A stretch of 44,119 nucleotides of DNA, from positions 1 through 44,119 of IMG/VR virus record IMGVR_UViG_3300009702_000005; one strand, 5' to 3'. Source of the stretch: a virus. The first letter of the stretch is position 1. Each line of letters opens with the position of its first letter. This document shows, one piece after another, positions 11,514 to 41,985 of this stretch. The notes under the pieces were generated by a model. It saw only the letters and a list, made by a program, of their open reading frames with translations. It was not told the DNA's origin and searched no databases. The position numbers and the translations under genes are program-made.

Positions 11514-11747
11514 GAATCTCCGACGACGGCCGCTACTATGGTAGCGGCCAGATTCGGATGTTCTATCCGAGAAAGGTAGGTAGGCTAGTTGTGGTTGCCG
11601 TGCTGGAAAAGTAAGCGGGATAATTCCTTGATAAACGAACTCATGTAGCGACTTGATTGCGGCTGTTGCTGTGGTCTTGCGTGGGAGTTGTCAGAGGATT
11701 CCAGACCCGTCACGACGACTACTATTACCAGAACAGGGGAGAAAGAA

Positions 11748-12164
11748 ATGAAAAATGCAAGTTACCGCAAACACAATGACCGCACAGATAATTCCAGTAC
11801 TTACCATAAAAAGGACGGTACAAACATCCGTGCGATCCTGAAACGTGAAGCTGAGGAAGAAATGAAAAACGCCATGACTACTACAACTACGACTGTACCG
11901 CGCTATGTGGTGCTGACAGCGGCAGCGCATATGCCCAATAGCTGTTGGGGCAGGTACGGGAAAGTTGCCGTAGTTGAAACAGACGGTAAAGGTATGCCGT
12001 GTCGAATCGACGAGCGTTTGAATTGTGTCAAGCGAATCGTAGAAATATGGGACCGCCAGAATATAGGCATAACTGACCGATGTGCCTTTGCGCGGGCAAA
12101 GCGCGAAGCTGAAGAATTGGCAAACCGTCTGAATGCTCTAGCTGAAACTGAAGGTGGTGACTAA
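11748..12164 (+). CDS. hypothetical protein, 138 aa, with an internal near-duplicate SD+ATG at 11862
   Basis: GGGGAG lies upstream of ATG 11748. The TTG at 11688 used by the ORF track lacks a properly spaced RBS. Confidence 0.5.
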   Translation: MKNASYRKHNDRTDNSSTYHKKDGTNIRAILKREAEEEMKNAMTTTTTTVPRYVVLTAAAHMPNSCWGRYGKVAVVETDGKGMPCRIDERLNCVKRIVEIWDRQNIGITDRCAFARAKREAEELANRLNALAETEGGD

Positions 12165-12484
12165 TGCAGCGCAAGCGAAAACGTCGAAAGGCACACTACA
12201 CTGAGATTGACCATTACCAAGTGTCTCCCAGAGTATCTATTAGACCGGGAGACGTAGTACGGTTCGGCGGTCGGGGAGCTACCTATCAGGGTAGTCGATT
12301 GCCGATATGCGGAAAATTCTCCGTATTGCGTGTATTGCAGACGCGCGGTGGCAAGGTGTTTCTTGATGTGTTCGGCCTTGACAAGACAGGCGGGTTTCAT
12401 ACGGTTTACGTGGATGGTAAGCCGTACTCACGGAACTGCATCAGGTGGTATCCGTACAAAGTGAAGAAAGTGAGGGAGACATGA
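12164..12484 (+). CDS. hypothetical protein with a basic N terminus (MQRKRKRRK), 106 aa
   Basis: The start overlaps the previous stop (TAATG). No family recognised. Confidence 0.5.
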   Translation: MQRKRKRRKAHYTEIDHYQVSPRVSIRPGDVVRFGGRGATYQGSRLPICGKFSVLRVLQTRGGKVFLDVFGLDKTGGFHTVYVDGKPYSRNCIRWYPYKVKKVRET

Positions 12485-16812: not shown

Positions 16813-16862
16813 ACAACTGTTGTTAATTGCGTAACTTTAATAGCGCGATTAACAGCAAACGG

Positions 16863-16900
16863 ACCCGGTTGGAGAGTAATTCTCTGACCGGGTTTTTTTT
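16863..16900 (+). terminator. rho-independent terminator closing the early block. A second hairpin lies just upstream at 16821..16854.
   Basis: Stem ACCCGGT..(extended)..ACCGGGT followed by T8 (16893..16900). Confidence 0.85.
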
Positions 16901-22001: not shown

Positions 22002-22012
22002 TGGTAGTTTAT

Positions 22013-22060
22013 GGGGACATCAGGCCGTACATAGATGCGGCTTGGTGTCCCCTTTTCGTT
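22013..22060 (+). terminator. rho-independent terminator
   Basis: About 15-bp stem GGGGACATCAGGCCG / CGGCTTGGTGTCCCC followed by TTTT. Confidence 0.75.
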
Positions 22061-22512: not shown

Positions 22513-24583
22513 GCAGCGTATAGTAGCTGTTGATACTGAAACAACAGGACTACACGTCATGCAGGGGGACCGGCCTTTCGCGGTGGGTATGTTGTGGGAT
22601 GATGGAACAGAAGAATACTATGATTGGCCGGTTGACCCATATACGCGCAAAGTATCAATTAGCACGGCAGCATATAAGCGTGTCAAGAAAGTGATGGAAG
22701 ACAAAAACACAATCAAGGTATTCCATAACGCTAATTTTGACCTGTTGATGCTACTATCAGGGTTTGGTATTGGCTTCCGTGGAAAGATAGAGTGTAGCTT
22801 AATCAAAGCTCAGGTTGTGTTGTCTGGGAGACAGTCATACAAACTAAAGGCGCTAGCACATGATCTACTTGGTATACATAATGTAGATGAAAGGGAACTG
22901 AAAGACGCTGTAAAGTCTTTGCGTAGAAATCGAAAGATTGCTAATACCTATTCATTAGGTAGTACCGTAGAGGAAGATTATTGGTTGCCTAAACATGAGG
23001 ATAACGCTAATACTTTATGCCGCAAGTATTGTCTACTTGATGTGAAGCGAACGCTATTACTGAATGCACTACTTGACAATTTAATAAAGGGTAAGAAAAA
23101 CAAGGGGATACGAAAGGTATATAGGCGTGAAATGAAGCTGCTTAAAGTATGTCTCAGGATGCAGCAAACAGGCATTAGGGTAGATATGTCGGAGATACGT
23201 AAACAAATAGATACGGCTAAAGAGACAGCACAGTTTGAATTAGAAGCGCTGCAAACATACTACAATAATATGGTAGGAAAATCAACCAAACCATTCAATC
23301 CCGGTAGTCCCACACAGGTTGCTAAATTGTTGTATGATGGAGCAGGGTTGAAGATAAAGAAACGAACAAAATCAGATAATCCGTCAACAGACATAGAAGC
23401 TCTACGACCATACTTAGACCATCCAGTAGTCATGTCGTTACTACGCTGGAAAGCAGCTAGTAAATCTACTAGCTCATTCTTCGGAAAATACCTATCGCTC
23501 GCATTAGCTGACCGCAATGGAGACTGGTATCTTTACCCAGAATTCCGTCAGAATCGGGCAATCACTGGCCGTATGAGCATGTCTGAGCCGAATCTGCAAC
23601 AAGTATCGCACGGTAAGACGGCAGCACAGAAAGGGGCCGTACCAATTTATGCCCGCCGTCCGTTCATCCCCAGAACAGGTAAGGTGTGGCTGTGCGCGGA
23701 CTACTCACAGCTTGAAGCTCGCATCTTTGCATACTTAGCGCAAGAGCCTACCATGTTGCAGGCATTCGCTGATGGCCGTGACATGCACGCTGAATGTGCT
23801 GATAAATGTTTCGGTGGACGAAGGTATTATTATTTAGGTATGCGAATACTAATGACACGTTTAGGGTTTACTGGAACAGGAAGTGACCCTAAAGCTAAGG
23901 ATGTGTTAAGACAACTAGGACTACACAAGCAGAAGAAACAACGTGTTCGTAAATGGTTAATGAAGATGCTCTATGCCCGCAATTTTTCAATAGTATCTGT
24001 TGAGCGTGAATTGTTTGGAGATAGTGTAGCACGTAATAGAGCTAAGAATATCCTATTTCTTAAAACATATGGTGGTGGAGCATATCGGGCATCGAAAGAG
24101 ATAGGGTGCAGCTACGATGAAGCTAAAGAATTACTCAGTGGATATGATACAGAATTTCCAAAACTAAAGGCTTACCAGCGTAATGTGATAGCATATGCAA
24201 AAGAGCATAGACATATCAATACACTGTATGGTCGAAGAATTACAGTACAGAATCCTTTTGTGTACAAGGGTAAGGTTGTTGATCCAGCGTACAAAGCTGT
24301 TGACTATTCAATTCAGTCTGTTGCAGCCGACCTGATAAAACTTGCAATGATTGATATTGATAAGTGGTGCCGTAGACGGAAAGACCTTGATATTAAGATG
24401 CTACTACAGGTTCACGATGAACTTATCATAGAGATAGCTGAGAATCATTGTAAGCCGGGAATTCTACGACGAATCAAAGATATAATGGAAGACTCTCACT
24501 TAGATGGAATGGTAGCTACACCAGTTGAGTTGTCGCTATGTCGTAAGACGTGGGCAGAAAAGGAAGACGTAGAATTAAACTAG
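22502..24583 (+). CDS. family A DNA polymerase with 3'-5' exonuclease domain, 693 aa
   Basis: Exo I VAVDTETTGL, Exo II FHNANFDL, Pol motif A CADYSQLEARIFAYLAQE, motif B RNRAKNILFLKTYGGG, motif C LLQVHDELIIE. Confidence 0.9.
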   Translation: MKSRQRIVAVDTETTGLHVMQGDRPFAVGMLWDDGTEEYYDWPVDPYTRKVSISTAAYKRVKKVMEDKNTIKVFHNANFDLLMLLSGFGIGFRGKIECSLIKAQVVLSGRQSYKLKALAHDLLGIHNVDERELKDAVKSLRRNRKIANTYSLGSTVEEDYWLPKHEDNANTLCRKYCLLDVKRTLLLNALLDNLIKGKKNKGIRKVYRREMKLLKVCLRMQQTGIRVDMSEIRKQIDTAKETAQFELEALQTYYNNMVGKSTKPFNPGSPTQVAKLLYDGAGLKIKKRTKSDNPSTDIEALRPYLDHPVVMSLLRWKAASKSTSSFFGKYLSLALADRNGDWYLYPEFRQNRAITGRMSMSEPNLQQVSHGKTAAQKGAVPIYARRPFIPRTGKVWLCADYSQLEARIFAYLAQEPTMLQAFADGRDMHAECADKCFGGRRYYYLGMRILMTRLGFTGTGSDPKAKDVLRQLGLHKQKKQRVRKWLMKMLYARNFSIVSVERELFGDSVARNRAKNILFLKTYGGGAYRASKEIGCSYDEAKELLSGYDTEFPKLKAYQRNVIAYAKEHRHINTLYGRRITVQNPFVYKGKVVDPAYKAVDYSIQSVAADLIKLAMIDIDKWCRRRKDLDIKMLLQVHDELIIEIAENHCKPGILRRIKDIMEDSHLDGMVATPVELSLCRKTWAEKEDVELN

Positions 24584-24654
24584 GACCGTAACTCAATGGT
24601 TAGAGTGCCGTCCTTATAAGACGGTGGTTGCGGGTTCGAGTCCCGCCGGTCCTA
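24582..24654 (+). tRNA. tRNA-Ile, anticodon UAU (reads AUA); no encoded CCA
   Basis: Manual cloverleaf: acceptor AGGACCG/CGGTCCT, D stem ACTC/GAGT, anticodon stem CCGTC/GACGG with loop CTTATAA, T arm GCGGG-TTCGAGT-CCCGC. The 5' end overlaps the polymerase TAG by 2 nt. Confidence 0.85.
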
Positions 24655-24676
24655 ATAACTATGAGAGGGGTAGACT

Positions 24677-26080: not shown

Positions 26081-26368
26081 ATGTTGGTTATAGCCTGTAA
26101 TGCACGTGATACTAGGATTGAACGGTGCGGAGATAACTATCTTATCACGCTTCCCGAATCATCTAAGGTAGCTATAGATTCGGTTAGGCGTAGGCCATTC
26201 ATACAAGTCATTGATAGTGTCGATGTTAGTATAAGCAGTAAGGGTACTATACTATTCAATCGTAAGCTAGACAGAAAGTCGGTGAGTAATGAAGGAATCG
26301 GAACTTCCGAAAAGGATACTACCCCTAATAGATCACGGATTCGTAGCTCTAGGGATAACAGGGAGTGA
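26081..26368 (+). CDS. hypothetical protein, 95 aa
   Basis: ORF with AGGAGAA upstream. It overlaps the primase start by 80 nt, so its 3' extent is uncertain. Confidence 0.35.
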   Translation: MLVIACNARDTRIERCGDNYLITLPESSKVAIDSVRRRPFIQVIDSVDVSISSKGTILFNRKLDRKSVSNEGIGTSEKDTTPNRSRIRSSRDNRE

Positions 26369-28400
26369 AGTCTATGGCTGTTGTCCGTTCTGTGGCCGTG
26401 AAAAATTCTATGTTAATTCGGATACGGGACAATGGAACTGCAAGAGTGCTAAGTGTAACCGTAGCGGCAATATGCACACGTTCCTTGATGCTGTGGTCGA
26501 TCACTACGGACCGATAGACCGCGAGAAACGGGAAAAGCTGGCAGAGCTACGGGGCATCCCCCAGAAATCATTTAAGCCCCATCGAATCGCTTGGAATGGT
26601 ATAGAATATCTGATTCCCGTCCGTTCCCCGACCGGCCACATACAAGATTTAGGCCGATATTCCGGCAGCGGTAAGGTCAAGGCAACTCGCAAGGGGTTAG
26701 GGCCGGGAACAGGCTTATATAACGCTGACAAGCTGGTTGAGGCTTCACCTGATGTGCGTGTTTATGTCTGTGCTGGATTCTGGGATGTCGTGGCGCTGGA
26801 AACGATTCTACGGACGGCCGGTAAACCCGGAGTTGTAGTTGGCGTACCGGGGGAGGGCGTATTTAAGCGCGAGTGGATTGGTCTGTTCAGTGGTCGAGAC
26901 GTAACGCTGTGTTATGATAACGATGAAGCTGGTGATAAAGGCATGGCAAAGGTAGGTGGTTGTACTGGGTATCCTAATATAGCAAGTAAGCTAAATGAAG
27001 GGTTACTACGTGGAGTGGCTAAACGGATACGTTATACCTGCTGGCCTATCTCACTTAGTAAATCCGTAGATATAAACGATCTATGGAAACAGGAAGGTAA
27101 AGCTGGATGGAAACTGCTAAAGCAGATGGTGGGAGACTATCATAGACGTGATATAGCGCTAACTGAGCAGAAAGGAACCAAGAAACGGAAGCGTAAGAAA
27201 GGGAAAAAGGTAGCTAGGGTAGGATTCGAGCAGATTCGTAGCGCATACGGTCAGTGGCTACGTATGACCCCAGATATGACGGCAGCGCTTCGACTTGTCT
27301 TCGCTGTTTCTGGCACTACGGTCTTACATGATGATCCTATCTGGTTGTACCTTGTTGGTCCGTCAGGCTGTGGAAAAACTGCCCTACTATCTTCGCTCCG
27401 TAACAGTGACCGTTGTGTGTATCGTAGCTCCCTTAGCAAGGCCGCATTAGTTTCTGGGATAAGAGGAACGGACCCTAGCTTGATTCCAGAGCTAGACGGG
27501 AAGTGTTTCATTACGAAGGATTTTACGGAAGTTTTGCAGACTAATGAAGCTGAACGTAGAGAGATATTAGCTGTATTGCGTGGGGTATTTGACGGCTACA
27601 TCGACAAGTCATATGGAACGGGCGTCTTCCGATCCTACGAGAGTCACTTTAACTTTATTGCTGGTGTCACGCCTATTATTCATCGGTATACGGATCAAGG
27701 GGCAGCGCTAGGCGACAGGTTTCTGAAATTTGATATGGGTAAAGGTAGAGCATTAGCGCAGCCACGTCAGTTAATGGCAGCGTTAGATGGATTGGAATTG
27801 AAACAGAAACAGGATAGTGACCTAGCTGATATAGCAGAAGCGTATATAGAGCAGTTGTATGAGCTAGCTGAGAAACGTATGGCTAAGTTTGAAACTCCAC
27901 GATGGCTTAAAGATAAGCTGATACTAATGGGGGAATTTATCTCTTTGATACGGACTAACGTAGAGAAAGACTATCATGGGGAGTTAGTCTACCGGCCTGA
28001 GAGTGAAATGCCTACCCGTATGGTTAAGCAGCTAGCCAAGTTAGCGGCTGGCCTATGCTTGATTGACGGTAAGGAAATGCCAGATCGGAAAATCTATTCA
28101 GAAATCCTTACTGTGGCAATGGATACGGCAACCGGGTTCCGTCGAGAAGTAGTAGAGACACTACTAAATGGACAGAAGCGCGGTATGACTGTCTCTGAAA
28201 TTGAGGGCATATTGAAATTGCCAGTATCTACGCTGCGAGACAGACTACACGAACTTTACGTGCTAAGGCTTGTGGAGCGTAGAAAGAAAAAACGGAAGTC
28301 TAAGGGTAATGGGATGGAGTTAGGTCCACGTCCTGATTACTGGCGTCTATCGGGCCGATTAAGAGAATTGTGGAACGAATTACAACAAGGGGTAGAGTAA
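26289..28400 (+). CDS. bifunctional primase-helicase (zinc finger + TOPRIM + P-loop NTPase + C-terminal wHTH-like), 703 aa
   Basis: CPFCGREKFY..WNCKSAKCNRSGN zinc finger. TOPRIM motifs VCAGFWDVVALE and YDNDEAGDKG. Walker A LVGPSGCGKTAL. Confidence 0.8.
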   Translation: MKESELPKRILPLIDHGFVALGITGSEVYGCCPFCGREKFYVNSDTGQWNCKSAKCNRSGNMHTFLDAVVDHYGPIDREKREKLAELRGIPQKSFKPHRIAWNGIEYLIPVRSPTGHIQDLGRYSGSGKVKATRKGLGPGTGLYNADKLVEASPDVRVYVCAGFWDVVALETILRTAGKPGVVVGVPGEGVFKREWIGLFSGRDVTLCYDNDEAGDKGMAKVGGCTGYPNIASKLNEGLLRGVAKRIRYTCWPISLSKSVDINDLWKQEGKAGWKLLKQMVGDYHRRDIALTEQKGTKKRKRKKGKKVARVGFEQIRSAYGQWLRMTPDMTAALRLVFAVSGTTVLHDDPIWLYLVGPSGCGKTALLSSLRNSDRCVYRSSLSKAALVSGIRGTDPSLIPELDGKCFITKDFTEVLQTNEAERREILAVLRGVFDGYIDKSYGTGVFRSYESHFNFIAGVTPIIHRYTDQGAALGDRFLKFDMGKGRALAQPRQLMAALDGLELKQKQDSDLADIAEAYIEQLYELAEKRMAKFETPRWLKDKLILMGEFISLIRTNVEKDYHGELVYRPESEMPTRMVKQLAKLAAGLCLIDGKEMPDRKIYSEILTVAMDTATGFRREVVETLLNGQKRGMTVSEIEGILKLPVSTLRDRLHELYVLRLVERRKKKRKSKGNGMELGPRPDYWRLSGRLRELWNELQQGVE

Positions 28401-28808: not shown

Positions 28809-29099
28809 ATGTTGTGTAACTTCAATACTAGGCTATGTTATATGACTACTGATGAAGTATTCCGTTTAGGGTTTGGTGGTGTGGTTGATGGTATACGTCC
28901 CGGCGCTACACGTACTGGCATCATACCTTGTGTTGATGGTGCCGATATTCACCTTGTTAGACTCTATCATCCTATGTTTGACCATACTGATGATGGACAA
29001 TTCATCGCTAACGTAATGGACAACGGGGAAACTGAGTATGTGCGTAGTAGTAGAACTTTTTATGAGTCTGATATGTCTGAGGGTTGGGAATCGTCTTGA
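28809..29099 (+). CDS. hypothetical protein, 96 aa
   Basis: ATAGGGAGA leader 5 nt upstream of the ATG. Confidence 0.5.
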   Translation: MLCNFNTRLCYMTTDEVFRLGFGGVVDGIRPGATRTGIIPCVDGADIHLVRLYHPMFDHTDDGQFIANVMDNGETEYVRSSRTFYESDMSEGWESS

Positions 29100-29216
29100 A
29101 TTTCTGGGGTAGGGTAAGTAAGCTGTGGGTGGAGCGGCCAGTATTGGAGTGTCGCCCGTTCCGCAGTCTTTACGCTGGCCGTTCTGTTTCTGGGTTGGAA
29201 CGTGGGGGAGTTTTTA

Positions 29217-29567
29217 ATGCACACTATCATCGAACAGGACATTGCGATTATTGTAGGGCTAGTTACGATTGTAGTAGCTTTAGTATCTGCTATCATAGGC
29301 ATTGTTAAGGTTAAGCTAACTGTAGATCGTATCCCTAAGCAGCTACGTGAAACGCATAATGTTACAATGGATAACCAAGCACACTTATGTTCATTGAGTA
29401 CAAAGGTAGACAGTTTGACTGAAGCAGTTGGAAACCATGCTAAGTCGTGCGACCATGACCGGGGGGATTTGAACAAGCTGGTAGCACAGCATTCTGTACG
29501 GATAGGATCGTTGGAAACGACCGTCTCACAGCACATGGACGACCATAAAGGCAGGGGTAAAAAATGA
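29217..29567 (+). CDS. membrane-anchored coiled-coil protein (holin/spanin-like candidate), 116 aa
   Basis: One TM helix IAIIVGLVTIVVALVSAIIGIV followed by a heptad-like region. GGGGGAG SD. Confidence 0.45.
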   Translation: MHTIIEQDIAIIVGLVTIVVALVSAIIGIVKVKLTVDRIPKQLRETHNVTMDNQAHLCSLSTKVDSLTEAVGNHAKSCDHDRGDLNKLVAQHSVRIGSLETTVSQHMDDHKGRGKK

Positions 29568-29581
29568 GAGAAAGGAACGGT

Positions 29582-30565
29582 ATGTGCAAGGTGTTAGCTG
29601 TTGCTCTGTTGAGCTTGCTATGGTGTAAGGTAGGGGTTGCTCAGTACGTCACTGAGATACGAGCTAAGGTAGTTGGCTGTACTAGTCCGTTCGGGTGAAG
29701 TGGAGTTAGTCACGGCAATACCGTAGTTGGAATAAACTATGGTACTGCCGTTCCTATCGGTCAGATAGGTGGAAAGACGTTTCTGATTACAGCCGGGCAT
29801 GTAGTGCAGTATGTAACATCCCCAGAAATAGGTGTGCGCGGTGAGTGGGCGAAGGTGAAAATCGTCGCGGTCTACACTAAAAACAACATAGACCTTGCTA
29901 TAGTAAGCTATGCCGGAAAGCTGGATAGCTTTTGTCTTGCTAAGTCTGTAGCTAGATTGGGAACGGTTGTTACTCTAGCATCTATCCGCGATAAAAAGTA
30001 TGCTTGGAGAGATTCGCGTATAACAGCTAACTCTACAGAACAAGCCGGTAGTCGTGGTCGATTTAAGGCTGAGTTAGTTGAAGCTGGAATAGGTGTAATC
30101 TCAGGCGAATCCGGGGGAGCAATCCTTAATAAGAGCAAACAAGTTGTGGGCATCATCGTAGCCGGTACAGACGCCAGAACGGTAGCGGTAGACTCTGTGG
30201 CTGTTCGTCGTTATGTTTCGCGGATTTTGGGTAGACTTCCCTCTTGTGGGACGCTACAATTACCGCAACGGCCGAAGATTGTGCAGCGCAAGCCGCCAGT
30301 GAAAATAGCCCCAATACCGCCGAGGGAGACCAAACAACTGCAACCGCCAACAGCGTTAAAGGAATTGCAGGCACAGCTTCAAGCTACCCAAAAGGAAGTT
30401 GTGAGGCTACAACAAGAGCTATCAGCTATGGCAGCTAGGCAAGCCAAACCCCTAAAGGTTAGGATACTCACTACTGATGGTAAGTTGGTAGATGAGAAGC
30501 AGTACAAGCCCGGAGAGACAATAGACTTGTATTTGGTTCCGCAGGGTAGCGGCAAAGGAAGGTGA
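29582..30565 (+). CDS. secreted trypsin-like serine protease with a Pro-rich linker and C-terminal coiled coil, interrupted by an in-frame TGA at 29696..29698
   Basis: ATG with AAAGGAACGG upstream. Signal-peptide-like MCKVLAVALLSLLWCKVGVAQ. Same frame across the TGA. Catalytic triad motifs LITAGHVV (His codon 29798..29800), DLAIV and GESGGAI. There is no in-frame ATG/GTG/TTG between the TGA and the GTG at 29804, which lies after the His. Confidence 0.65.
29696..29698 (+). other. in-frame TGA inside the serine protease reading frame (..SPFG*SGVSHG..)
   Basis: Codon-by-codon reading from ATG 29582. Confidence 0.9.
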
Positions 30566-30567
30566 TT

Positions 30568-30843
30568 ATGGAAGGTATCCCAGAAACACGACGCGGCACT
30601 AGGTACTTCGATTGTCCAGAGTGTAAGTATTCGTGGAGTCATGTATCGCGCGACGCAGCATCCCCTAGTGGAAAGAATTGCCCGAAGTGTGGAGAGTTTT
30701 GCCAGCCTACACGGTATGAGCTTGATAGTAGCATCAGTGTTGATAGGCTTGGTAATCTGATAGAAGACAATGAAGACTCTATTGTAGAGTCTACCAGTGA
30801 GGCAGGAACGGAAGATAAGGAACAGGAAAATGGCAGCGGTTGA
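30568..30843 (+). CDS. zinc-ribbon protein, 91 aa (alternative GTG start at 30562)
   Basis: CPECKYSW....CPKCGEFC. AAGGAAGGTG SD. It overlaps the protease stop. Confidence 0.55.
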   Translation: MEGIPETRRGTRYFDCPECKYSWSHVSRDAASPSGKNCPKCGEFCQPTRYELDSSISVDRLGNLIEDNEDSIVESTSEAGTEDKEQENGSG

Positions 30844-31060
30844 CCTGAGTGAGAATGTTGCTAACGCATTGCTGACTGACGCTATGCAGGCTGGTAAGAT
30901 TGCCATGAATAATTTTATCACTGTGCAGAAGTTGGTTGACTATGATTACATGGAAGGTAAACGTGTTATCGGTTTGACTGAAGCTGTTGGTGTACGTGAA
31001 GTTGCCAGCAAGTCAGTACCGGCTGGTCCGGTTAGTCCGGGTACTGCTAATACTCAGTAG
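30830..31060 (+). CDS. hypothetical protein, 76 aa
   Basis: ATG preceded by AAGGAACAGGAA. It overlaps the upstream gene by 14 nt. Confidence 0.45.
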   Translation: MAAVDLSENVANALLTDAMQAGKIAMNNFITVQKLVDYDYMEGKRVIGLTEAVGVREVASKSVPAGPVSPGTANTQ

Positions 31061-31284
31061 CATGTGGTTGTGGTGGCCGCTGGTCCCGGCCTAGCAGCAA
31101 GGGTTGTAGTCGTATGGGTAGAGTCGAGCGGTTTACCTACCTTACGCAAGACTCAGGGGTACTACACGACTCCCCTTGCTGTTTTTACTACATTAGGATC
31201 ATAGCTGTATACTCTCGGCAGTACAGCGCGAGTTTGCATGACGTGAAACTATCAAGCTAACTAGCATGTAACAGAGTAGCAGCT

Positions 31285-31545
31285 ATGGTCCCATTAGTCC
31301 AGTTAATGCGGGAAGGCAGGAAGCTGCAAGATAGGTTCGTAGAGGCTAATGCTAGGCTGGATTACCTACAAGTTTCCGGCGGCATAGCAGACCTTGACCC
31401 GGCGAGCGTAATCGTGGAGCGGAACGATGCAACAATCGACAGAAAACACGTTCCTGAAGTTTCTGACCCAGAAACTCGGCCTGCGAGTGATGCACGACCA
31501 GATAGTAGTAGCGGACCACAAGAAACAAAGGGACCAAGTACATAG
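31285..31545 (+). CDS. hypothetical protein, 86 aa
   Basis: ORF after a 224-bp intergenic gap. The RBS is weak and the C-terminal half is low complexity. Confidence 0.35.
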   Translation: MVPLVQLMREGRKLQDRFVEANARLDYLQVSGGIADLDPASVIVERNDATIDRKHVPEVSDPETRPASDARPDSSSGPQETKGPST

Positions 31546-31576
31546 CCTAGTAGATAAGTATAAGGAACGGCTAGGT

Positions 31577-31873
31577 ATGAACGCATCTACTGACGGCAGC
31601 GATGACAACTTTCAAGTAGGCGACACGACATACCATATATCACAACCAGCCAAGCAGTCATTACTAAAGCCGTTGCTAGGCACCGCATTAACTGCTGGAT
31701 TGTTAGGTAGTGGTATAGGCGCTGCCGCTATTCCAGCGTTGTCAGCTATGGGGTTACTAGGCAATAAGCCGCAACAACAGCAAGTAATTCCCAGAGATAC
31801 TAAGCCAACACCAAAGGTTTCAAAGGCGGTTGATACGAATACGTGGGAAAGTCTCAGATTACACCAACCATAA
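31577..31873 (+). CDS. small membrane protein with a Gly-zipper-like TM segment, 98 aa
   Basis: ATG 31577 has AAGGAACGG upstream, the same SD form as the protease. TM segment LLGTALTAGLLGSGIGAAAIPALSAMGLLG. The longer track ORF from 31427 would overlap the 31285 ORF. Confidence 0.45.
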   Translation: MNASTDGSDDNFQVGDTTYHISQPAKQSLLKPLLGTALTAGLLGSGIGAAAIPALSAMGLLGNKPQQQQVIPRDTKPTPKVSKAVDTNTWESLRLHQP

Positions 31874-31938
31874 GAAAGGGGGTGATTGCTATGTTGTGAT
31901 TTCAGAAACAGCTAAATACGCCAACAGATCGGCGACAT

Positions 31939-31971
31939 GATAGGGCTATGGCATAAGGCTGTAGCCCTATC
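31939..31971. repeat. perfect 10-bp inverted repeat GATAGGGCTA / TAGCCCTATC (13-nt spacer), with a third ATAGGGC half-site at 32002..32008
   Basis: Read directly. It lies in the 180-bp intergenic region upstream of 32053. Confidence 0.8.
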
Positions 31972-32052
31972 GTATAGCTAGTACGTGAACACCAGAATGC
32001 TATAGGGCCATAGCGTCTAACTATGGTCCTAATCTACATAGGAGCGGAACTA

Positions 32053-34240: not shown

Positions 34241-34401
34241 CACGCGAAGACGACATACTTAAAGATATAGGCCGAACTAAGCGAACTATCTTGTTCGTAG
34301 TTAGATGGCTTACCGCAATAGCTAAGGGACTAGCTACTGTGATAGCTTTTGTAACGCGCAAAGGGAAAGCAAAGGATACTACACATAATGGAAAACTCTA
34401 A
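34237..34401 (+). CDS. small single-TM protein candidate, 54 aa (below the ORF-track cutoff)
   Basis: ATGA overlap with the terL stop. Sequence MTREDDILKDIGRTKRTILFVVRWLTAIAKGLATVIAFVTRKGKAKDTTHNGKL. It overlaps the portal start by 14 nt. Confidence 0.35.
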   Translation: MTREDDILKDIGRTKRTILFVVRWLTAIAKGLATVIAFVTRKGKAKDTTHNGKL

Positions 34402-37400
34402 AGACCTACAAGAGCAGCTAACAGTTGATAAGTTGAAACTTCAACTACAGATGCTTGAAGCGCAGAAACAACAAATACAAGCGGCCGGTCTATTAGAAAC
34501 AACCGGATGGGGACAACGTGTTCCCCAGAGTGAGTATCCGTGGAACGATTCATACAAAGACTTTGGGCTTGGTGCGCCGTCTACTGGTATTGTCACGCGA
34601 GTAGATGATAGGACAGACCGTAAATATCTACCAGTTTATCGTACTGAATACGACTTGCGTAGAATGCGAGCACGTCATAGGTCTCTCTTTCATTTTGTTT
34701 CTGTGATTAGTGGTCTGTCTGATACACTGGTGAACTACATAGTAGGTGAAGGATTCACTGTTGAGATAACACCTAGCAAGCAATTTGAGAGTGACCCGGA
34801 AGCTAGGCGTATATCCAATACGCTACAACTATTAGTTGACGACTTTCTTGAATCCATTGATTTCAACGGTGGGTTGGATAACGACATAGTAAACAGCACT
34901 ATCACAGATGGAGAAGTGTTTTTAGCTATGTATCCAGACTCTACTGGTAAGCGTGGCGGCTTTCCATCAGTACGTAAGATAGAGCCTGATGAAGTTACAG
35001 AGCCGCAAAACCCGCTACCGATTGAGCGATGGCTTGGTACGCTTGACCAATTCGAGAGCTTTTGGGATTTCGGCGTACACACTAGATTCTGCCCAGAGCT
35101 AAAGCGGAATGACGTAGAAAATCCGCTAGGCTATCATGTAGTCTTTAATGACGGCGGAACTGAGTGGGATTACATCCCAGAAGATCGAATGATTCATGTT
35201 AAGCGTAATGTCACGCGCAGAGCTAAGCGCGGAGTGAGCGATATATTAGCAGTCGAAGTTGAAGTTGATAAGACTGCTAAATTACGCGAGCGTACTGCTG
35301 ATGGGGCAATTGCACAAGCTGCTATTGCGTTTATTCGCCAGTGGAACGCTACTAAGTCTGACGTTGAGTCTTTAGTTAGTGAGCAGTTTGGTATTGATGT
35401 ACAACGGCCTAAAGACAGAGGCCTATCAACTAAGCGGGCTGTAGCGTTGGACCGGACAAGAATCATTGATATTCCGCAGGGAGCACAATATCAGGCTGGT
35501 CCGCTTGGTACACTACGTAGTCCGGTGTTTGTTGAAGTTGCTCAGTTTCTTTTGCGGCTTGCGGCTGTTCGTTGGGCAATGCCGGAGTTTCTTATTAGTG
35601 GTGATGCGAGCAATAATAATTTTGCATCTACACTAGTTACTGAGTCGCCATTTGTAAAAGCACGTGAGCGGGATCAGCGATTCTTTAGTAAGCCAATTAA
35701 GGAACTCATTGAAAAGTTTATACGCATCTACCATAGTACGCATAGGTTTGATCGTGTGGCTACTGAATGGAATGTGTTTCGGCGATTGTTCAATATAGTA
35801 ATTACGCCAAGCGAAGTAGCTACAAGGGATAAGCAAGCGGCAGCACAGTATAATAAAGTGTTGAATGATAGTGGAATCAAAAGTAAGAGAACGTGGGCAT
35901 CTGAGGAAGGGCTTGACTACGATGCTGAACAAGAAAATATACAGTCAGAACCGCAACAGGCATCGTCTATGCCGGGCTTTGGTGGTAGCTCACAAAGCCC
36001 TTTCCCTGAGAGTGTGATAGCAGGTATTGAAGCTATCCGCTACCATAATTCCAGTGTAGGATTGTCCGAAGGAACGTCTGGTTGTGGTACTGGCAAAGGG
36101 GGATTTGGTAACGATAATACTTGTGCTGTTGGGCATGGCAGTAATAAGAAAGACCTATTGGGTAGAGACGAGACTGATGTAACGCTGTCTGGTAAACCTG
36201 AGATAGAATTAAGATCAGAAAATGAGGATTATAAAAGAGCATCTAAAGTATTACTCGGCAAAGAAATATCGTCAGAAGACATAGCTAATCTTGTAGGTGC
36301 GCCTGATACAAGCATTGCTCATGTGACGGCAGGGTTTGCAAGTCTTGATAAGAACCAAGAAATAAGAACTTACTACCGCGATCAGTCTTTAGGGATACGG
36401 GCGTCTAGGACAATAAGTTTAGACGAATTTGGACATCCTATAATTAGAAATGAGGAGTTTATAATTTCACCGAGTAAGGAAGGTAAGGGTATTGGTACTA
36501 GAGTCTTTGCTAATGAAGTTGCTGAAGCATCTAAAGCAGGAATATCTAGTATACGTACAAATGCAGCACGAAATAGCGACCTGAATGGGTATTATACATG
36601 GCCGCGACTAGGCTACGACGGTGAGTTGCCAGAGTCTACACAGACAAAAGTACGCGATGCAGTATTCACAGGAAAACTCCCGCATAGTCCTACACTGGAT
36701 AGGGATGGAAACATCCATGTATCAGATTTAATGAAAACAGAGAAAGGTAGGAAGTGGTGGAAGGAAAATGGACATGGGTTAAATGTAGAGTTTGATCTTT
36801 CTAAAGGTTCACAATCGCGCAGAGTGTTACGCAAGTATCTTCAAAAGCGTTTTGGAGATACTATGGGAGTCACTGAATCTCAGACTCCCGCAGGCGTCCC
36901 ACAAGACCCGCAAGACCCGCAGCAAAGGCTGGAATACCCCGATACCCTTACCCCAGAGGAAGATTCGATTCTCGCGTCTGTCTGGGATGAAATAGCGGCT
37001 GAAGATGGCGCTATCCAAGAGGGTACTACAGGCTGTGGTACTGGCAAAGGGGGATTTGGCACAGGCAATACTTGTGCTGTTGGGCATGGGGGGCCGAAGA
37101 CTAAGGTATCGCCAGAGGAGGAAGCGCGTCTTAAAGCGTTACCGACAGACGAGAAGCTGAACATCATAACCGGCAACGCTGCTAAGAGGGCGGTACTTCT
37201 ACGTAACCGGTTGATTGAGAAACATGGCTTTACCTATCAACCATTGAGCGATACAGAGCCGGATAGAGGGTTTGTAGTTAGTATCTTTCCGCAAGATAGT
37301 TTGGTGTTAGAGGGGCAAAGCGCTACGCCTAAGATAATCAAGGATTACATTGTTGACCATGCTAGACGGTTTACCAATACTAAGATTAAGGTTGGTGGTT

Positions 37401-37703: not shown

Positions 37704-38663
37704 ATGGCTTTTAGTGTTCCATTAGTGTTTGGTTTACGTTTATCTCTACGAACTGCAATAGAGATACGCGCAGCTAGATTACTAAAGCACGCATTTTCTC
37801 ACTATAAACAATTGCTTGTTCGCGCTACTAAGCCTGAAGATATAGCTGGTGCATGGGACCATATGGAGTCAGAAGTAGCCGAAGCTTTATTTGTTTTCGG
37901 AGAGTCAATGTTTTTAGCTGTAGTAAGGCAGGCTAATGCTGATATGCTGGAAGGGGGTATAGAAGCTGCTATAGTAGCCCATGAGATAGCTAAGTTTGCA
38001 GCTAAAAGAATAGTTGAGCATACTAAGAGAGTGGTAGGTAATTCTCTTACACTTAATGAGTCTCTATTTCGTAGGCTTGAACAGCTTTTAGAGGACCTGT
38101 TTGGTGATAGCCGTGTTCGTAGAATCATAACAACAACAGGTACTAAGATAGAGACTAGGGCTATTGAGTTTATTGCTGAAGATAAAGAAGTTGATGAAGC
38201 TGGTACGCGGGATAGAATCAAGGTTACTAAGCTTCAACGAGCTAAGGATGGGACTATAAAAGCAGTCAATGGAAAACGTATAAAGGCAGGTAGTACGCTT
38301 GGTGGTGTGGTAGCAGATATTGACATAAAAAATGGACTAGCTAAGGCGCTTGGAAAACGTCCTAAGTTCAATAAAGATGGTAGTTTACCGGCTAGTGAAT
38401 TAGTAGAACCGTCAACAGTAGAGGGACATGAAGGTAGGAAGTTCAAAATGATATGGCGGTTAAATCCGTTATGTAATCACTGTAGTTTCTGTCCATTGAT
38501 TGCTGGAACAGATTCACTTTTCTACAAAAGATTTGTCGAAGGTCCGCCCGCACACGTAAATTGCTGTTGCAATGTCGAAATAGTATCTGTAGACTTCCCA
38601 GAGAAGACACGACCGCAAGTAGTTTTGGTATTACAGGCAGCAAGAGAAATTGGGTTGATTTAA
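37704..38663 (+). CDS. MuF / SPP1 gp7-like head morphogenesis protein, 319 aa
   Basis: C-terminal GPPAHVNCCCNVE corresponds to the PPxHxNCRC signature. Position right after the portal. Confidence 0.7.
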   Translation: MAFSVPLVFGLRLSLRTAIEIRAARLLKHAFSHYKQLLVRATKPEDIAGAWDHMESEVAEALFVFGESMFLAVVRQANADMLEGGIEAAIVAHEIAKFAAKRIVEHTKRVVGNSLTLNESLFRRLEQLLEDLFGDSRVRRIITTTGTKIETRAIEFIAEDKEVDEAGTRDRIKVTKLQRAKDGTIKAVNGKRIKAGSTLGGVVADIDIKNGLAKALGKRPKFNKDGSLPASELVEPSTVEGHEGRKFKMIWRLNPLCNHCSFCPLIAGTDSLFYKRFVEGPPAHVNCCCNVEIVSVDFPEKTRPQVVLVLQAAREIGLI

Positions 38664-38665
38664 TC

Positions 38666-39937
38666 ATGCCGTTTGCTGGATTCGCTAACTTTGCAGCATG
38701 TATCGCAGATCAGCGGAGCAAAGGTAAAGACCTAGACTCTGCTAAGAAAATCTGTGGTAAACTACAAGCGAAAGAGGGGTTTGATTCAATAGCTACTCCA
38801 GAAAGTTTGTCTGATACGGTAACACTACAAGAGTCTACTCTATCTAGTAGGGTGGACGAAGACGCTGGTGTAATCCGTAATGTCAAGATTCTAGGCTTGA
38901 CAAGTAAGAATGGTCGTATCTATTCTGTTGATGCGATCAGAGAAGCACAGCATTTGTACGATGGTGTGAAGGTCTACATAGATCATCCAGTCGGGAGAGC
39001 CGACAGACCATACGTTTCTGGGTTTGGTGAGATTCGTAATCCGAGTGTCAAAGAAAGTTCTGGTCTGTATGGAGACCTGTATTACAACACAAGGCATCCA
39101 CAAGCTAATCAAATTGCTGAGGATGCTAGACGGTTTCCAACAAACTTTGGCTTATCGCATAACGCTGAAGGAACTGTAGCAAGGAAAGGTGGTAAGCTAG
39201 TAGTGGACAAGATAAACTATGTTGAATCAGTTGACATAGTAGGGCGTCCAGCAACTAACAAAAGTCTGTTCGAGTCTTATACAGGGAGTGAGTCAGTGAA
39301 AAAATCAGTTGATCGAATTGTGAAAGACGTTCCTAGCAATACGCCGGGGTTGGTTGGATTGCTCGAACAGATGGAAGACGGAACTCTCGCGCCGACTGAT
39401 ATTGTGGACATGCCCGCGCCGGATAGTCCGAGTGAACCGGTTGATCCACAAGAACAGGTCAAGGCGGCAATTAAGGCGGCAATCATTGCAGCCTTTGAAG
39501 ACCCGACTTTGGACATTCAGGGTACGCTTGCGCAAATCAAGAAAATCCTGAAAGCTCACGAAGATATTGTTGGTCCTGTTGGTCCTGATGCGTCTCCAAA
39601 ATCTAATAAAACTCCCGCAGATACTGCTGGAGATACTGGACCAGAGACTCCCGCAGAAGACAAAGAGAAAGACAAGACGATTGAGAGTTTGCAGCGTAAG
39701 GTTAGAGCGCTGGAAATTCTTGAATCGGTCAAGGTGCCGAGTAGTTCAGTTAAGGTCAAGGCACTAATCGCGCTTGATACTGAGCGGGAAATGCGGCAAC
39801 TTGCAGAAAGTTGGTCGGGTGGCAGTATTGGTAGTGGTCGGCCTGCACAGTCCGCAGCGGCATATGGTCGTGGTGGAAGTTTTGACGCGCAAGTTGCCGG
39901 AGAAAACGGGTTTGCTAAAGCTGTTACAGGAAGGTAA
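38666..39937 (+). CDS. prohead scaffolding protein (possibly a protease-scaffold fusion), 423 aa
   Basis: Position between MuF and the capsid genes. Pro/Asp/Glu-rich linker and a C-terminal coiled-coil-like segment ESLQRKVRALEILES. No protease catalytic residues identified. Confidence 0.5.
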   Translation: MPFAGFANFAACIADQRSKGKDLDSAKKICGKLQAKEGFDSIATPESLSDTVTLQESTLSSRVDEDAGVIRNVKILGLTSKNGRIYSVDAIREAQHLYDGVKVYIDHPVGRADRPYVSGFGEIRNPSVKESSGLYGDLYYNTRHPQANQIAEDARRFPTNFGLSHNAEGTVARKGGKLVVDKINYVESVDIVGRPATNKSLFESYTGSESVKKSVDRIVKDVPSNTPGLVGLLEQMEDGTLAPTDIVDMPAPDSPSEPVDPQEQVKAAIKAAIIAAFEDPTLDIQGTLAQIKKILKAHEDIVGPVGPDASPKSNKTPADTAGDTGPETPAEDKEKDKTIESLQRKVRALEILESVKVPSSSVKVKALIALDTEREMRQLAESWSGGSIGSGRPAQSAAAYGRGGSFDAQVAGENGFAKAVTGR

Positions 39938-39945
39938 TAGCAGCG

Positions 39946-39965
39946 CACACACACACACACACACA
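39946..39965. repeat. (CA)10 dinucleotide microsatellite in the scaffold-capsid intergenic leader
   Basis: gcgCACACACACACACACACACAtacgcaca, read directly. Confidence 0.95.
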
Positions 39966-39990
39966 TACGCACATAGAGGGAGAGTGAGTG

Positions 39991-40725
39991 ATGCTTTCAT
40001 TGATGCAGGCAAGCGACCGCTTCGCTAAGTTGCTTGGTAACTATGAATTCATTGACGATTTTGACGGTGAATTTGTTGCTGAGGATTGGGCCGCAGTAGG
40101 TGATGCTACAGCCGCGCCTGTAGCGGGAGACGCTGCAAACGGTACTCTTGTTATTACGGCAGCGGCAGCAACGCCAGCCGATAATAATGAGGAGTACATT
40201 CACCGACCGAATGAGAACTTGTTGTTTGCGTCTACGCGGGAAATCATCGCGCTCTTTCGTTTACAGTACGCTGAAGCTGCAACAAACGCTGCTAACATCA
40301 TAGTCGGAATGATGGACGCAGTTGGAGCTAATGCGCTTCAGGATAACGGCGCAGGTCCGAAAGCAAGCTACAGTGGTATGGTGCTGTACAAGGTTGACGG
40401 TGGGACTAACTGGATTTTCGAGACTTCCATTGGTAGCTCGCAGACAACCACTACAAGTGAAAAGACTGCTGGCGGTAGTGGATTTGTTACGATTGGATTG
40501 ATTGCTCGCGGGTTGTCGTCTACTAAAGTTGAATGCATACCATTGCTTGACGACTCTGGCGGATTCAACATGAAACAATTACGCGATGCTAACGGCAACC
40601 TTATCAAGCACACGCTTGACCCAAGTTCTGCTACAGAAATGGAATTGATGGCAGGGCTTAAAATGGGTTCGTCTACAGCCGAAACTCTAACGCTTGACCT
40701 TGCTGCATGTGGGCAGTCTAGGTAA
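39991..40725 (+). CDS. virion structural protein (capsid decoration / jelly-roll-like candidate), 244 aa
   Basis: It lies between the scaffold and the major capsid gene. AGAGGGAGAG SD. FIDDFDGEF..W motif at the N terminus. Function not established. Confidence 0.4.
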   Translation: MLSLMQASDRFAKLLGNYEFIDDFDGEFVAEDWAAVGDATAAPVAGDAANGTLVITAAAATPADNNEEYIHRPNENLLFASTREIIALFRLQYAEAATNAANIIVGMMDAVGANALQDNGAGPKASYSGMVLYKVDGGTNWIFETSIGSSQTTTTSEKTAGGSGFVTIGLIARGLSSTKVECIPLLDDSGGFNMKQLRDANGNLIKHTLDPSSATEMELMAGLKMGSSTAETLTLDLAACGQSR

Positions 40726-40785: not shown

Positions 40786-41985
40786 GTGTGGCGCAATCTT
40801 AGAGAAGCTCAGGCGAGTCGGCGACTGTATGAAGCTGCACAAGCTGACGGAACACCGAACCGATTCTTTGCAGAGCTTGCAACAGCGCTGCAAGAGGGAC
40901 AGCTTGACCGGTCAAGATTCTCAATCCGTAATACCTTTCGACAATTCGTCGAAGACGGCAACGAGATGATCGAATCTTTCTCTCCCAGAAATCAAGCTGA
41001 CGGAATGCGATTGCTTGAAGCTGGTGGAGCAGTTGATACTACCGCATTCAGCAACATTACGGGACAGTTTGTTTACTCAACTGTGCTCGAACAATTCCAG
41101 TCGCCTACGTTTATTGCTGGTGATTTGGCGCGTACTGTACCAACCGAATTCAATGGGGAGAAGATTCCCGGTGTTGGCGGGCTTGGTGATGCTACTAAGC
41201 CTATTGGAGAGGGCGAGGATTACCCGACTGCTGGCGTTGGCGAGGAGTGGATTGAAACGCCTGAAACTGATAAGCATGGCGTTATTGTGCCGGTTACGAA
41301 GTAAGCTATTTTCTTCGACCGCACAAGTCTTGTGCTTGATCGTGCTGGTAAGGTTGCAGAAGCGCTTGCTATCCGCAAAGAGAAACGTGTACTGGATGTA
41401 GCGCTTGGTATCACTACTAGCTACGTCAGAAACGGTGCTACTGCACAAGCAACATACGGTAATACGCACACCGAAGGAGACTTCGATAACCTTGTTGCTT
41501 CTAATGCGTTAGTGGATTACACTGACGTTGAAACGGCATTACTCGCGTTTGATTCGATTACCGATCCGAATACGGGTGAGCCGGTTCTGATTAGTGTTGC
41601 TGATGTGGTTGTGCCGAGTGGTTTGCTATTCACAGCCGCGCGAGTCTTTGAAGCAACTGGAATTGAACAAGGAACTATTTCCGCATCTGCGCCGCGCACC
41701 ATTGGCGGTAATCCGTTAGTTAGTCCGGCTGTGAAACGTGGTAATTCCTTTTCGATTACTACTAATCAGTACGTCGCCAACCGAACGGGTAATCAGACTA
41801 CGTGGTTTATTGGCGATTTCAAAGCTGCATTTCAATACCGTGAAAACTGGCCGGTCAGCGTAGTTCAAGCGCCGGAAAATAGTCACGACGATTTTCACCG
41901 CGATATTGTATCGCAGTTCAAAGTCTCAGAACGTGGTACTCCGGCAGTCATTGAGCCGAGAAAGGTCGTTAAGTGTACTGCCTGA
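40786..41985 (+). CDS. HK97-fold major capsid protein (Mu gpT-like organisation), about 398 aa, interrupted by an in-frame TAA at 41302..41304
   Basis: The two track ORFs (40786..41304 and 41332..41985) are in the same frame. The sequence reads GEGEDYP...TDKHGVIVPVTK*AIFFDRTSLVLDRAGKVAEALAIRKEKRVLDVALG, which is one continuous capsid strand/spine-helix pattern. ATAGGGAGAGAG leader, GTG start. Confidence 0.7.
41302..41304 (+). other. in-frame TAA inside the major capsid protein frame, at a position where related capsid proteins often have a polar or acidic residue
   Basis: gtt acg aag TAA gct att ttc ttc gac. GAA to TAA would be a single substitution. Confidence 0.9.

Follow-up and report, generated by a model that had tools for sequence, protein, structure and literature searches.

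The window analysed here is the whole 44,119-nt sequence of the IMG/VR virus record IMGVR_UViG_3300009702_000005. It is a phage genome in which the gene for a putatively secreted HtrA-like serine protease is interrupted by an in-frame TGA, a candidate selenocysteine (Sec) codon. The TGA is followed by a hairpin resembling a bacterial selenocysteine insertion sequence (SECIS). Features of the locus are collected in Table 1.

The interrupted protease gene

Read through the TGA, the gene encodes 333 aa from ATG 29564 or 327 aa from ATG 29582, and the TGA is codon 39 when numbered from the latter. ATG 29564 shares bases with the stop of the gene before it (ATGA) and extends the N terminus by the basic n-region MRERNG. 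The frame from ATG 29582 runs through MCKVLAVALLSLLWCKVGVAQYVTEIRAKVVGCTSPFG to the TGA and continues with SGVSHGNTVVGINYGTAVPIGQIGGKTFLITAGHVV, followed by DLAIV, GESGGAI, a Pro-rich part and a long helix. The residues directly after the TGA are SGVSHGN, with FLITAGHVV further on. If Sec were inserted, the predicted peptide across codon 39 would be VVGCTSPFG-U-SGVSHGNTVVGINYGTAVPIGQIGGK. Around the TGA there are 45 stop-free codons upstream and 288 downstream with no frameshift. The first in-frame ATG, GTG or TTG beyond it is GTG 29804, which lies two codons past the catalytic His codon (29798-29800), in agreement with the preliminary description, which found no usable start downstream of the TGA. 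Public gene callers split the gene into a 44-aa open reading frame (ORF) from ATG 29564 and a 253-aa ORF from GTG 29804. A frameshift at the TGA was rejected, as the parts before and after it share one frame and none is needed; the out-of-frame GTGs 29695 and 29700 open very short ORFs only.

Pfam Trypsin_2 matched residues 61-191 with 34.2 bits against a cut-off of 27.6, and Pfam Trypsin was also matched. An AlphaFold2 model, run on the read-through product with X at codon 39, reached a predicted local distance difference test score of 85.7 overall and >90 over the protease domain, with low confidence at residues 38-43. The best solved structures in Foldseek were DegP, DegS, HtrA1 and MarP (Rv3671c), with E values of 5e-11 to 1e-9 over about 210 aligned columns, and H73, D104 and S177 were invariant in the family alignment. 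HtrA proper (DegP/DegQ/DegS) is marked by C-terminal PDZ domain(s), and no PDZ domain was matched in the Pfam scan of the protease. The homologue alignment, Pfam and the translation from ATG 29582 bear out the preliminary description of a single secreted trypsin-like protease gene interrupted by a TGA. Its wording that the TGA splits the catalytic domain held in part. Codon 39 lies N-terminal to the Pfam-matched core, but the wording seems structurally reasonable because in the AlphaFold2 model the strand that precedes the TGA (residues 24-33) is paired with a strand of the protease barrel at residues 47-62. The predicted signal-peptide cleavage site was placed from the sequence and the family alignment.

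When 1.84 billion representatives were searched with a profile, 2,845 family members were obtained at E <=1e-3, 97 of them at E <=1e-10, and the family occurs in phages and Planctomycetes genomes. Its layout is constant: the signal peptide ends in A-x-A before a Q, a C-x(3-5)-C pair comes about 12 residues later, and usually six residues further on G-S/T-A-V-x-I-G begins, followed by L-T-A-x-H, D-L-A and G-E-S-G-G. The C-terminal part comprises a Pro-rich linker, often collagen-like (GXY) or coiled-coil, and then a small conserved beta domain. Judged from the sequences compared, this phage/Planctomycete family alone has the N-terminal C-x(3-5)-C clasp. P0002, a distant full-length homologue from a word-indexed search, is uninterrupted, shares 25% identity over 97% of the read-through product and aligns on either side of the TGA; it is located in a syntenic phage-like contig. 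A related-locus search with the window protease in IMG/VR gave no match, a scan of IMG/VR with the homologue P0030 gave collagen-repeat matches only, and a word-indexed profile search with alignment A3 was swamped by generic HtrA proteases. Several homologues (P0004, P0008, P0012, P0017, P0018, P0024 and others) carry collagen-like G-X-Y repeats where the window has the Pro-rich linker and coiled coil, which suggests a trimeric stalk in these proteins.

Identity and recurrence of the in-frame TGA

The same TGA was found in two further assemblies, the ENA contig k141_1329830 (ERZ27249683, 44,135 bp) and a Logan contig (SRR6056608, 14,238 bp), both located via the record of the downstream ORF's product. 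These contigs share >99.9% identity with the window, from which they are set apart by a few single-nucleotide polymorphisms (SNPs) and one 2-bp indel. The 63-nt context with the TGA is identical in all three assemblies, which come from different pipelines. Because this context is the same in assemblies that differ elsewhere, an assembly artefact at the TGA is very unlikely. Nothing specific speaks for an assembly or sequencing error at 29696-29698, except that the TGA is one base from a Cys codon, and we give such an error next to no probability.

All genes of the window lie on the plus strand, and the stops of its 63 tiled plus-strand ORFs are TAG (25), TGA (21) and TAA (17); therefore, the standard code applies. 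A genome-wide reassignment of TGA, already dismissed in the preliminary description, is excluded, with TGA ending 21 of the 63 ORFs. ARAGORN detected no suppressor tRNA in the window, where tRNA-Ile(TAT) is the sole tRNA, and the phage encodes no tRNA-Sec. Unlike in stop-codon-reassigned phages, TGA is a regular terminator here, and the window yielded a single candidate for such a split.

In a 27-sequence MAFFT alignment (A2), the TGA column is occupied by a nearly invariant Cys (Cys2), 5 residues after a nearly invariant Cys (Cys1, C33 of the window), and a window-unique 8-residue insertion comes right after the TGA. The C33 column is Cys in 40 of 47 homologues in alignment A7. A profile hidden Markov model built from the 47 Cys-forms only also assigned the TGA position to the Cys2 column, and C at this position scored 4.3-4.7 bits above X, A, G or W. 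From the TGA to the conserved G-T-A-V motif there are 14 codons (29699..29740) in the window, six in most Cys-forms and eight in the nearest relative, locus L004; the exact placement of the insertion depends on the alignment. The nearest relatives are all Cys-forms. L004 reads C-ENGS-C-RISTVRSY-GTAVPIG, and two loci in Planctomycetaceae metagenome-assembled genomes (MAGs) read C-TPNG-C-QQISGT-GACA. Alignment with homologues had been proposed in the preliminary description as a check, and the nearly invariant Cys found at the TGA position proved decisive.

Since gene callers would render TGA-split genes as N-terminally truncated proteins, the truncated hits of the family were examined. Four other members, from at least two further lineages, carry a TGA at the Cys2 column. 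L005 (P0119, Logan ERR2752155) reads AQTYPLRVEVQGCRGFT-TGA-QIGHRVGSAVCIGEHDDRWWFLTVGHAY, with the core QGCRGFT-TGA-QIGHRVGSAV. The second member is P0030, found on three contigs, each from a different sample, with Tara Oceans among them (L006/L007/L008), and reads QGCRGYS-TGA-QLSERLGSAVCIGEH, starting QLSERLGSAV after the TGA. L010 (P0142, ballast-water metagenome SRR23576959; PMC10415351) reads EKCAGFG-TGA-KTQYGYGTVVSIG, starting KTQYGYGTVV, and L014, a JGI contig, reads QGCRGFT-TGA-QTTHRAGSAVCIG. The insertion of the window is absent from all four, and the TGA is therefore unambiguously at Cys2 in them. Callers split every TGA-form with returned calls (window, L005, L006-L008 and L010) into an ORF of 34-44 aa and an N-terminally truncated protease, the P0030 gene being divided into ORFs of 34 aa and 276 aa. 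Other truncated hits were rejected as TGA-splits, being due to a contig edge (P0075, P0117) or to a frameshift with the Cys kept (P0011). A further Cys-form, L011 (Logan SRR15827330), shifts frame soon after the catalytic His, either through an error of assembly or because the copy is truly frameshifted.

L005 and L006 are 52% identical, and the TGA has thus been kept across 48% amino-acid divergence. Over the whole ORF of the L005/L006/L014 clade, the proportion of synonymous differences was 0.65-0.75 (near saturation) and that of nonsynonymous differences (pN) was 0.22-0.35; pN was 0.17-0.31 before the TGA and 0.09-0.27 from the TGA to the next ATG. As pN is constrained on either side of the TGA, both sides appear to be translated in this clade. 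These substitution patterns indicate that the TGA is maintained there in a translated, selected gene and exclude a pseudogene in the clade. Judging by this recurrence, a TGA at the Cys2 column may be a functional state of the family, for which the sequences argue strongly.

The downstream hairpin and the decoding of the TGA

The stem-loop at 29712-29751 begins 13 nt past the UGA. Its apical loop is GGAAUA (29729-29734), and the distance from the UGA to the loop is 30 nt. The hairpin folds at -23.8 kcal/mol and its upper stem by itself at -12.3 kcal/mol. Compared with dinucleotide-shuffled sequences its z score is -7.6, and within an 81-nt context z is -4.2. Among all 44-nt local folds of the 44-kb genome it ranks sixth in stability, and most of the stronger ones lie between ORFs. 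According to the bacterial SECIS (bSECIS) consensus of Zhang and Gladyshev, as given in PMC13188914, the loop has 3-9 nt with a G in its first two positions (mostly G then G or U), the upper stem has 4-16 bp, the UGA-loop distance is 16-37 nt and the minimum free energy is <= -7.5 kcal/mol. The hairpin of the window agrees with all of these constraints, with a 6-nt loop starting GG, 10 bp, 30 nt and -12.3 kcal/mol. A qualifying hairpin occurs at 2.6% of window positions, and at 0.6% when <= -12 kcal/mol is required. The 3' arm consists of the conserved N-Y-G-T-A-V coding sequence, and the 5' arm and loop come from 6-8 extra codons that Cys-form relatives do not have; this arrangement gives the impression that a SECIS was worked into the reading frame when Cys was exchanged for Sec. 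The preliminary description had proposed searching 29699..29760 for a SECIS-like structure without naming selenocysteine as the mechanism, and the outcome of this search was also decisive.

Other origins of the hairpin were considered. It has no T-run or terminator-like tail and received no terminator-like call, and a transcription terminator was rejected. A mobile palindromic element carrying the stop was likewise rejected, the hairpin sequence occurring only once in the window. Strong hairpins of -22 to -33 kcal/mol lie between ORFs at 22011-22054, 11215-11258, 11507-11550, 31931-31974, 16853-16896 and 10803-10846 and are probably transcription terminators; another, at 12263-12306, lies within ORF 12164..12484.

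The other TGA-forms carry mini-hairpins of two types, both fitting the bSECIS shape rules. Loci L005, L006 and L014 have CAGUGCA-GUY-UGCAUUG (spacing 27, -7.2 kcal/mol), and a further TGA-form has CGGGAC-GGUC-GUCUCG (spacing 23, -7.6 kcal/mol). In L005/L006/L014 the five stem codons are identical in nucleotide sequence and the loop wobble base alone varies, whereas of all codons for conserved residues 27% are identical in the three. Though taken from a post-hoc test, the identical stem codons support a constraint on the RNA.

Taking these results together, and on wholly computational grounds, TGA 29696 is probably a selenocysteine codon and the gene a bacterial-type selenoprotein gene in a phage. 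From the sequence we infer SelB binding, selenium incorporation, the disulfide or selenenylsulfide, export and the protease role. The host would be a Sec-competent bacterium, probably a member of the Planctomycetaceae, in which the hairpin would serve as bacterial SECIS and recruit host SelB with Sec-tRNA(Sec) to the ribosome when the UGA is in the A site. Insertion of Sec would compete with release factor 2 (RF2), and translation would run on to the stop at 30563. The resulting preprotein of 327/333 aa would be exported across the cytoplasmic membrane by its signal peptide. After maturation, this would be a serine protease of the HtrA-like kind that carries a coiled-coil stalk and ends in a small beta domain. 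In it, a Cys33-Sec39 selenenylsulfide would take the place of the Cys-Cys pair, which presumably forms a disulfide that clasps the first beta-hairpin. If Sec were not inserted, translation would yield just a peptide of 38/44 residues, and protease output would therefore be tied to the Sec machinery and selenium supply of the host.

Several observations weigh against a Sec codon. A 48-sequence MAFFT alignment placed the Cys2 of the homologues on T47 of the window and left PFG-X-SGVSH in a gap, so that the TGA lies within an insertion; MAFFT assigns X no score, and the profile hidden Markov model of the Cys-forms, built to decide between the two placements, favoured the Cys2 column. A single base change turns TGY into TGA, and nonsense mutations arise easily at a Cys column. 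Sec in place of an apparently structural, non-catalytic Cys of a hydrolase would be unusual. Rfam searches, over the whole window at the gathering threshold and over 29560-29860 at E <=10, matched no SECIS family and gave only the tRNA and a chance miRNA-like match; the bacterial SECIS models in Rfam are narrow. In the E. coli element SelB contacts a G-U dinucleotide, which is missing from the GGAAUA loop. The hairpins of the other TGA-forms are small and of borderline energy (-7.2 to -7.6 kcal/mol), and three of six Cys-form loci also pass the relaxed shape filter, with Cys-form loci folding about as well as TGA-forms; the SECIS evidence beyond the window is therefore weak. The gene of the window has near-identical copies only and no diverged close relative, so that selection and covariation are not measurable in its own lineage. 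The host, plausible as it is, is deduced from relatives, and its Sec machinery is presumed.

Most of the remaining probability is split between selenium-independent leaky read-through and a lineage-specific nonsense mutation. In the former, a near-cognate tRNA (Trp or Cys) would rarely read the UGA, possibly helped by the hairpin and the UGA-A context, and a small regulated amount of protease would be made. In E. coli, UGA is leaky when the next base is A, and phage Q-beta produces its A1 protein by reading through a UGA. On either side of the TGA the ORF is intact, and the TGA is kept in other lineages, which calls for functional read-through but not necessarily for Sec. In addition, the hairpin starts 13 nt past the UGA, about at the mRNA entry of the ribosome, and the SECIS filter discriminates poorly beyond the window. 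However, in a Cys pair, Trp instead of a nearly invariant Cys would probably be detrimental, and we know of no established bacterial mechanism of efficient UGA misreading by Cys-tRNA. A TGA for low expression could sit anywhere, yet it occupies the same Cys column in all five genes, which is a hallmark of Sec/Cys exchange. Programmed leaky termination therefore seems unlikely.

A plain TGY-to-TGA nonsense mutation, by which a dispensable gene was recently inactivated in the lineage of the window, with an unrelated hairpin arising for example by a template-switch mutation, is judged quite improbable. It would suit the occurrence of near-identical copies only, among which selection is not measurable, as well as the one clearly private nonsense change of the window (the capsid TAA described below), the alternative alignment with the TGA inside an insertion, and the fast evolution of the protease compared with its neighbour (about 30% versus 78% identity to L004). 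However, the mutation would by chance have struck the codon where four other members carry a conserved TGA, and this 13 nt ahead of one of the six most stable hairpins in 44 kb; by a rough estimate, coincidence alone would give this in <1% of cases. Furthermore, 288 stop-free codons without frameshift follow, the insertion is in frame, and the TGA is fixed in three assemblies, unlike the capsid TAA. The preliminary description had left open a pseudogene or error on one side and recoding on the other. Recoding is favoured, and a pseudogene or error is unlikely given the three assemblies, the Cys column and the recurrence in four relatives. Bypassing of the T4 gene-60 type (tRNA hopping) was rejected, as the nearest Gly codon after GGG-TGA is GGA 29702, ahead of the hairpin, no matching GGG lies beyond the hairpin, and a hop would remove the Cys2 position.

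The preliminary description had also counted two late genes that need stop suppression, the protease and the capsid gene, and had proposed host-dependent or regulated suppression of the stops read by RF2 (UGA and UAA). The major capsid gene of the window (40786..41985) does have an in-frame TAA at 41302-41304, and its joined product matches Phage_capsid_4 in one stretch across this stop. However, both the ENA and the Logan assembly have GAA (Glu) at 41302 and an uninterrupted 399-aa capsid gene. The TAA is therefore a private G-to-T variant or error in the window, and the claim of two suppressed late genes failed. With TGA and TAA ending 21 and 17 ordinary ORFs and no suppressor tRNA, a general suppression of RF2-read stops is highly improbable; Sec insertion is site-specific and does not need one. 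The contrast between a TGA fixed in three assemblies and a private capsid TAA strengthens the case for a functional TGA in the protease. No record of the 217-aa C-terminal capsid ORF was found by look-up, and the question was settled via the neighbouring gene. A capsid split at 39988/40786 was rejected, because many stops lie between these ORFs and they are separate genes; the real split is at 41302.

Genomic setting and comparison with known systems

Table 1. Features of the protease locus and associated elements in the window
Feature	Position	Strand	Description or basis
Putatively recoded protease gene	29564..30565	+	Start ATG 29564 or ATG 29582; true stop TGA 30563-30565
Predicted Sec-type (export) signal peptide	29564..29641	+	Basic n-region, hydrophobic VLAVALLSLLW, GVA then Q; family consensus A-x-A then Q
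S1C (HtrA-like) chymotrypsin-fold protease domain	29651..30229	+	Pfam Trypsin_2 and Trypsin above cut-offs
Cys1 codon TGT (C33), presumed bonding partner of residue 39	29678..29680	+	C-x(3-5)-C pair
In-frame TGA, candidate selenocysteine codon	29696..29698	+	Cys2 column of the family; alignment, three assemblies
SECIS-like stem-loop	29712-29751	+	6-bp lower stem, 1-nt symmetric bulge, 10-bp upper stem
Catalytic triad codons	His 29798-29800, Asp 29891-29893, Ser 30110-30112	+	Ser in GESGG
Pro-rich linker, then a coiled-coil-like long helix (residues 257-287) and a small beta domain at the C terminus (KVRILTTDGKLVDEKQYKPGETIDLYLVP)	30230..30562	+	AlphaFold2 secondary structure
Small conserved gene after the protease in relatives	30830..31060	+	Part of the conserved module
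Membrane-protein gene, third module member	31427..31873	+	Module of protease, small protein and transmembrane protein
tRNA-Ile, anticodon TAT	24581-24655		Sole tRNA of the genome (ARAGORN)

The genes behind the protease recur in relatives. The product of 30830-31060 is 78% identical to that of the gene after the protease in L004 and 69% identical to loci in the Planctomycetaceae MAGs CALOEF010000088.1 and JAJDEK010000235.1, in each of which a Cys-form protease lies directly upstream; a distant counterpart was found in L001 and L016. The membrane protein shares 30% identity with a 145-aa gene located two genes past the protease in L016, which is itself 44% identical to its L001 counterpart. A three-gene module of secreted protease, 76-97 aa protein and 137-148 aa membrane protein is thus present in the window (29564-31873), in L001 and in L016 (10001-11871). 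In the window an extra zinc-ribbon-like ORF with two CxxC pairs (30562..30843) is wedged in after the protease. L016 belongs to the 7.8-Mb Planctomycete chromosome GCA_021651095.1, where the module stands alone between folate-biosynthesis genes and a DUF2237 gene. A family member of GCA_021651095.1 adjoins PSCyt1/PSD1/DUF1501 genes, which we take to be typical of Planctomycetes, and another is annotated in a Planctomycetaceae MAG (HUG91379.1). A related-locus search with the terminase in GTDB genomes gave no match.

The protease gene is clustered with genes for small membrane proteins just upstream of the terminase, and lysis cassettes are often found at such positions. The position of the gene suggests an envelope or lysis function for the protease. 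The tRNA-Ile(TAT) of the phage fits the inferred host phylum, as tRNA-Ile(UAU) genes are present in several planctomycete genomes (PMC4807772). Complete gene sets for Sec insertion and several selenoproteins have been reported in some Planctomycetes, namely two of three new isolates, Gemmata obscuriglobus and Isosphaera pallida (PMC4807772). By analogy with these, a Sec-competent host is plausible.

The protease resembles known bacterial selenoprotein genes with an intragenic SECIS, such as E. coli fdhF, in having an in-frame UGA where homologues have Cys, a hairpin within the bSECIS constraints and a nearby partner Cys. It differs from them in that it lies in a phage genome, encodes a hydrolase and would carry Sec at an apparently structural Cys instead of a redox-catalytic one; moreover, its loop is GGAAUA and not GGUC-like, and no Rfam SECIS match was obtained. 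Like HtrA, DegP, DegS and MarP (S1C), it has a Trypsin_2 domain, a His-Asp-Ser triad and predicted export, and these proteins were its best structural matches. In contrast to them, it has no PDZ domain and instead carries a Pro-rich/collagen-like linker, a coiled coil, a small beta domain and the Cys clasp. The activity of MarP is reported to depend on a disulfide.

A trypsin-like serine protease family with predicted Sec was described from marine GOS (Global Ocean Sampling) metagenomes; it is COG5640, with nine Sec and 128 Cys sequences (PMC2398784). It too consists of secreted chymotrypsin-fold serine proteases with a predicted Sec at a conserved non-catalytic Cys, and it was not recognised as viral. 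These are S1A trypsins with GDSGGP and a dockerin-like tail, in which the Sec lies late, in SWGYGU about 25 residues after the catalytic Ser, whereas the Trypsin_2-like protease of the window has an N-terminal C-x(4-5)-U before the catalytic His and does not belong to that family. In part 1 of 3 of Dataset S2 of PMC2398784, which holds all seven family headings and part of the 74 GOS_C sequences, no sequence resembled the present family, and the GESGG motif was absent from all four supplementary files of that paper. The GOS family is nevertheless valuable as a precedent for a secreted serine protease with Sec at a conserved Cys that is not catalytic.

The Q-beta coat/A1 read-through and the stop-reassigned phages are similar to the present case in that a full-length phage product needs decoding of a stop. 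Here, however, only one site is affected and it falls on a conserved Cys column, elsewhere in the genome TGA terminates ORFs as usual, a suppressor tRNA is lacking, and the short product consists of just a signal peptide and 18 residues. The selenoproteins of eukaryotic viruses are glutathione-peroxidase-type oxidoreductases whose SECIS elements lie in the 3'-UTR, whereas the window has a bacterial-type intragenic element in a protease gene; borrowing of the Sec machinery of the host is common to both, as proposed here for the phage. A few eukaryotic viruses redefine UGA as Sec (PMC8310308). Full-text literature searches found no report of a phage-encoded selenoprotein. Neither phages nor proteases are mentioned in a 2026 review of prokaryotic selenoproteomes and the deep-Sep paper, and phages are not mentioned in a 2022 review of prokaryotic selenoproteomes.

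On balance, we are inclined to think that phages of Planctomycetes and marine relatives encode genuine selenoproteins that have their own intragenic SECIS and use host SelB and tRNA-Sec. In these, a disulfide would have become a selenenylsulfide, an envelope-acting enzyme would depend on host selenium, and Cys-to-Sec switching would have happened repeatedly in one family. If the Sec reading is true, the window would hold the first selenoprotein gene reported in a phage, as far as literature searches show, and Sec decoding would extend to bacteriophage genes. The family would offer Sec at an apparently structural Cys of a secreted hydrolase, with many natural Cys and Sec forms for comparison. 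A Sec codon would also confine productive expression of a phage gene to Sec-competent hosts, which bears on host prediction and ecology. Since the splits made by gene callers leave an ORF and an apparently dead truncated protease, viral selenoproteins may be systematically hidden in databases. As a natural element that is very stable and compact, the hairpin of the window would be well suited to tests of SECIS function in Planctomycetes.

The window and the ENA contig are circularly permuted relative to each other, and locus L017 aligns across the end and start of the window (1 and 44119); the window is therefore a complete phage genome of about 44.1 kb, circular or terminally redundant. A blastn search of 29000-31000 against the INPHARED phages gave no match, and the terminase is <30% identical to that of any deposited phage. 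Over the roughly 20.8 kb compared, 14 SNPs separate the window from the ENA contig, and nine of these cluster within 90 bp (26657-26747) inside ORF 26289..28400 (703 aa). The changes are not adenine-specific, and the cluster is a local hypervariable or recombined patch; the Logan contig starts at window position 26748, so that the patch lies outside its coverage. The 2-bp (CA) indel relative to both other assemblies is at 39946-39947, in the gap between ORFs 38561..39937 and 39988..40725. With 1,104 aa, ORF 34388-37702 is unusually long, which implies that a large extra domain is fused to its lambda-type portal domain (Phage_portal_2).

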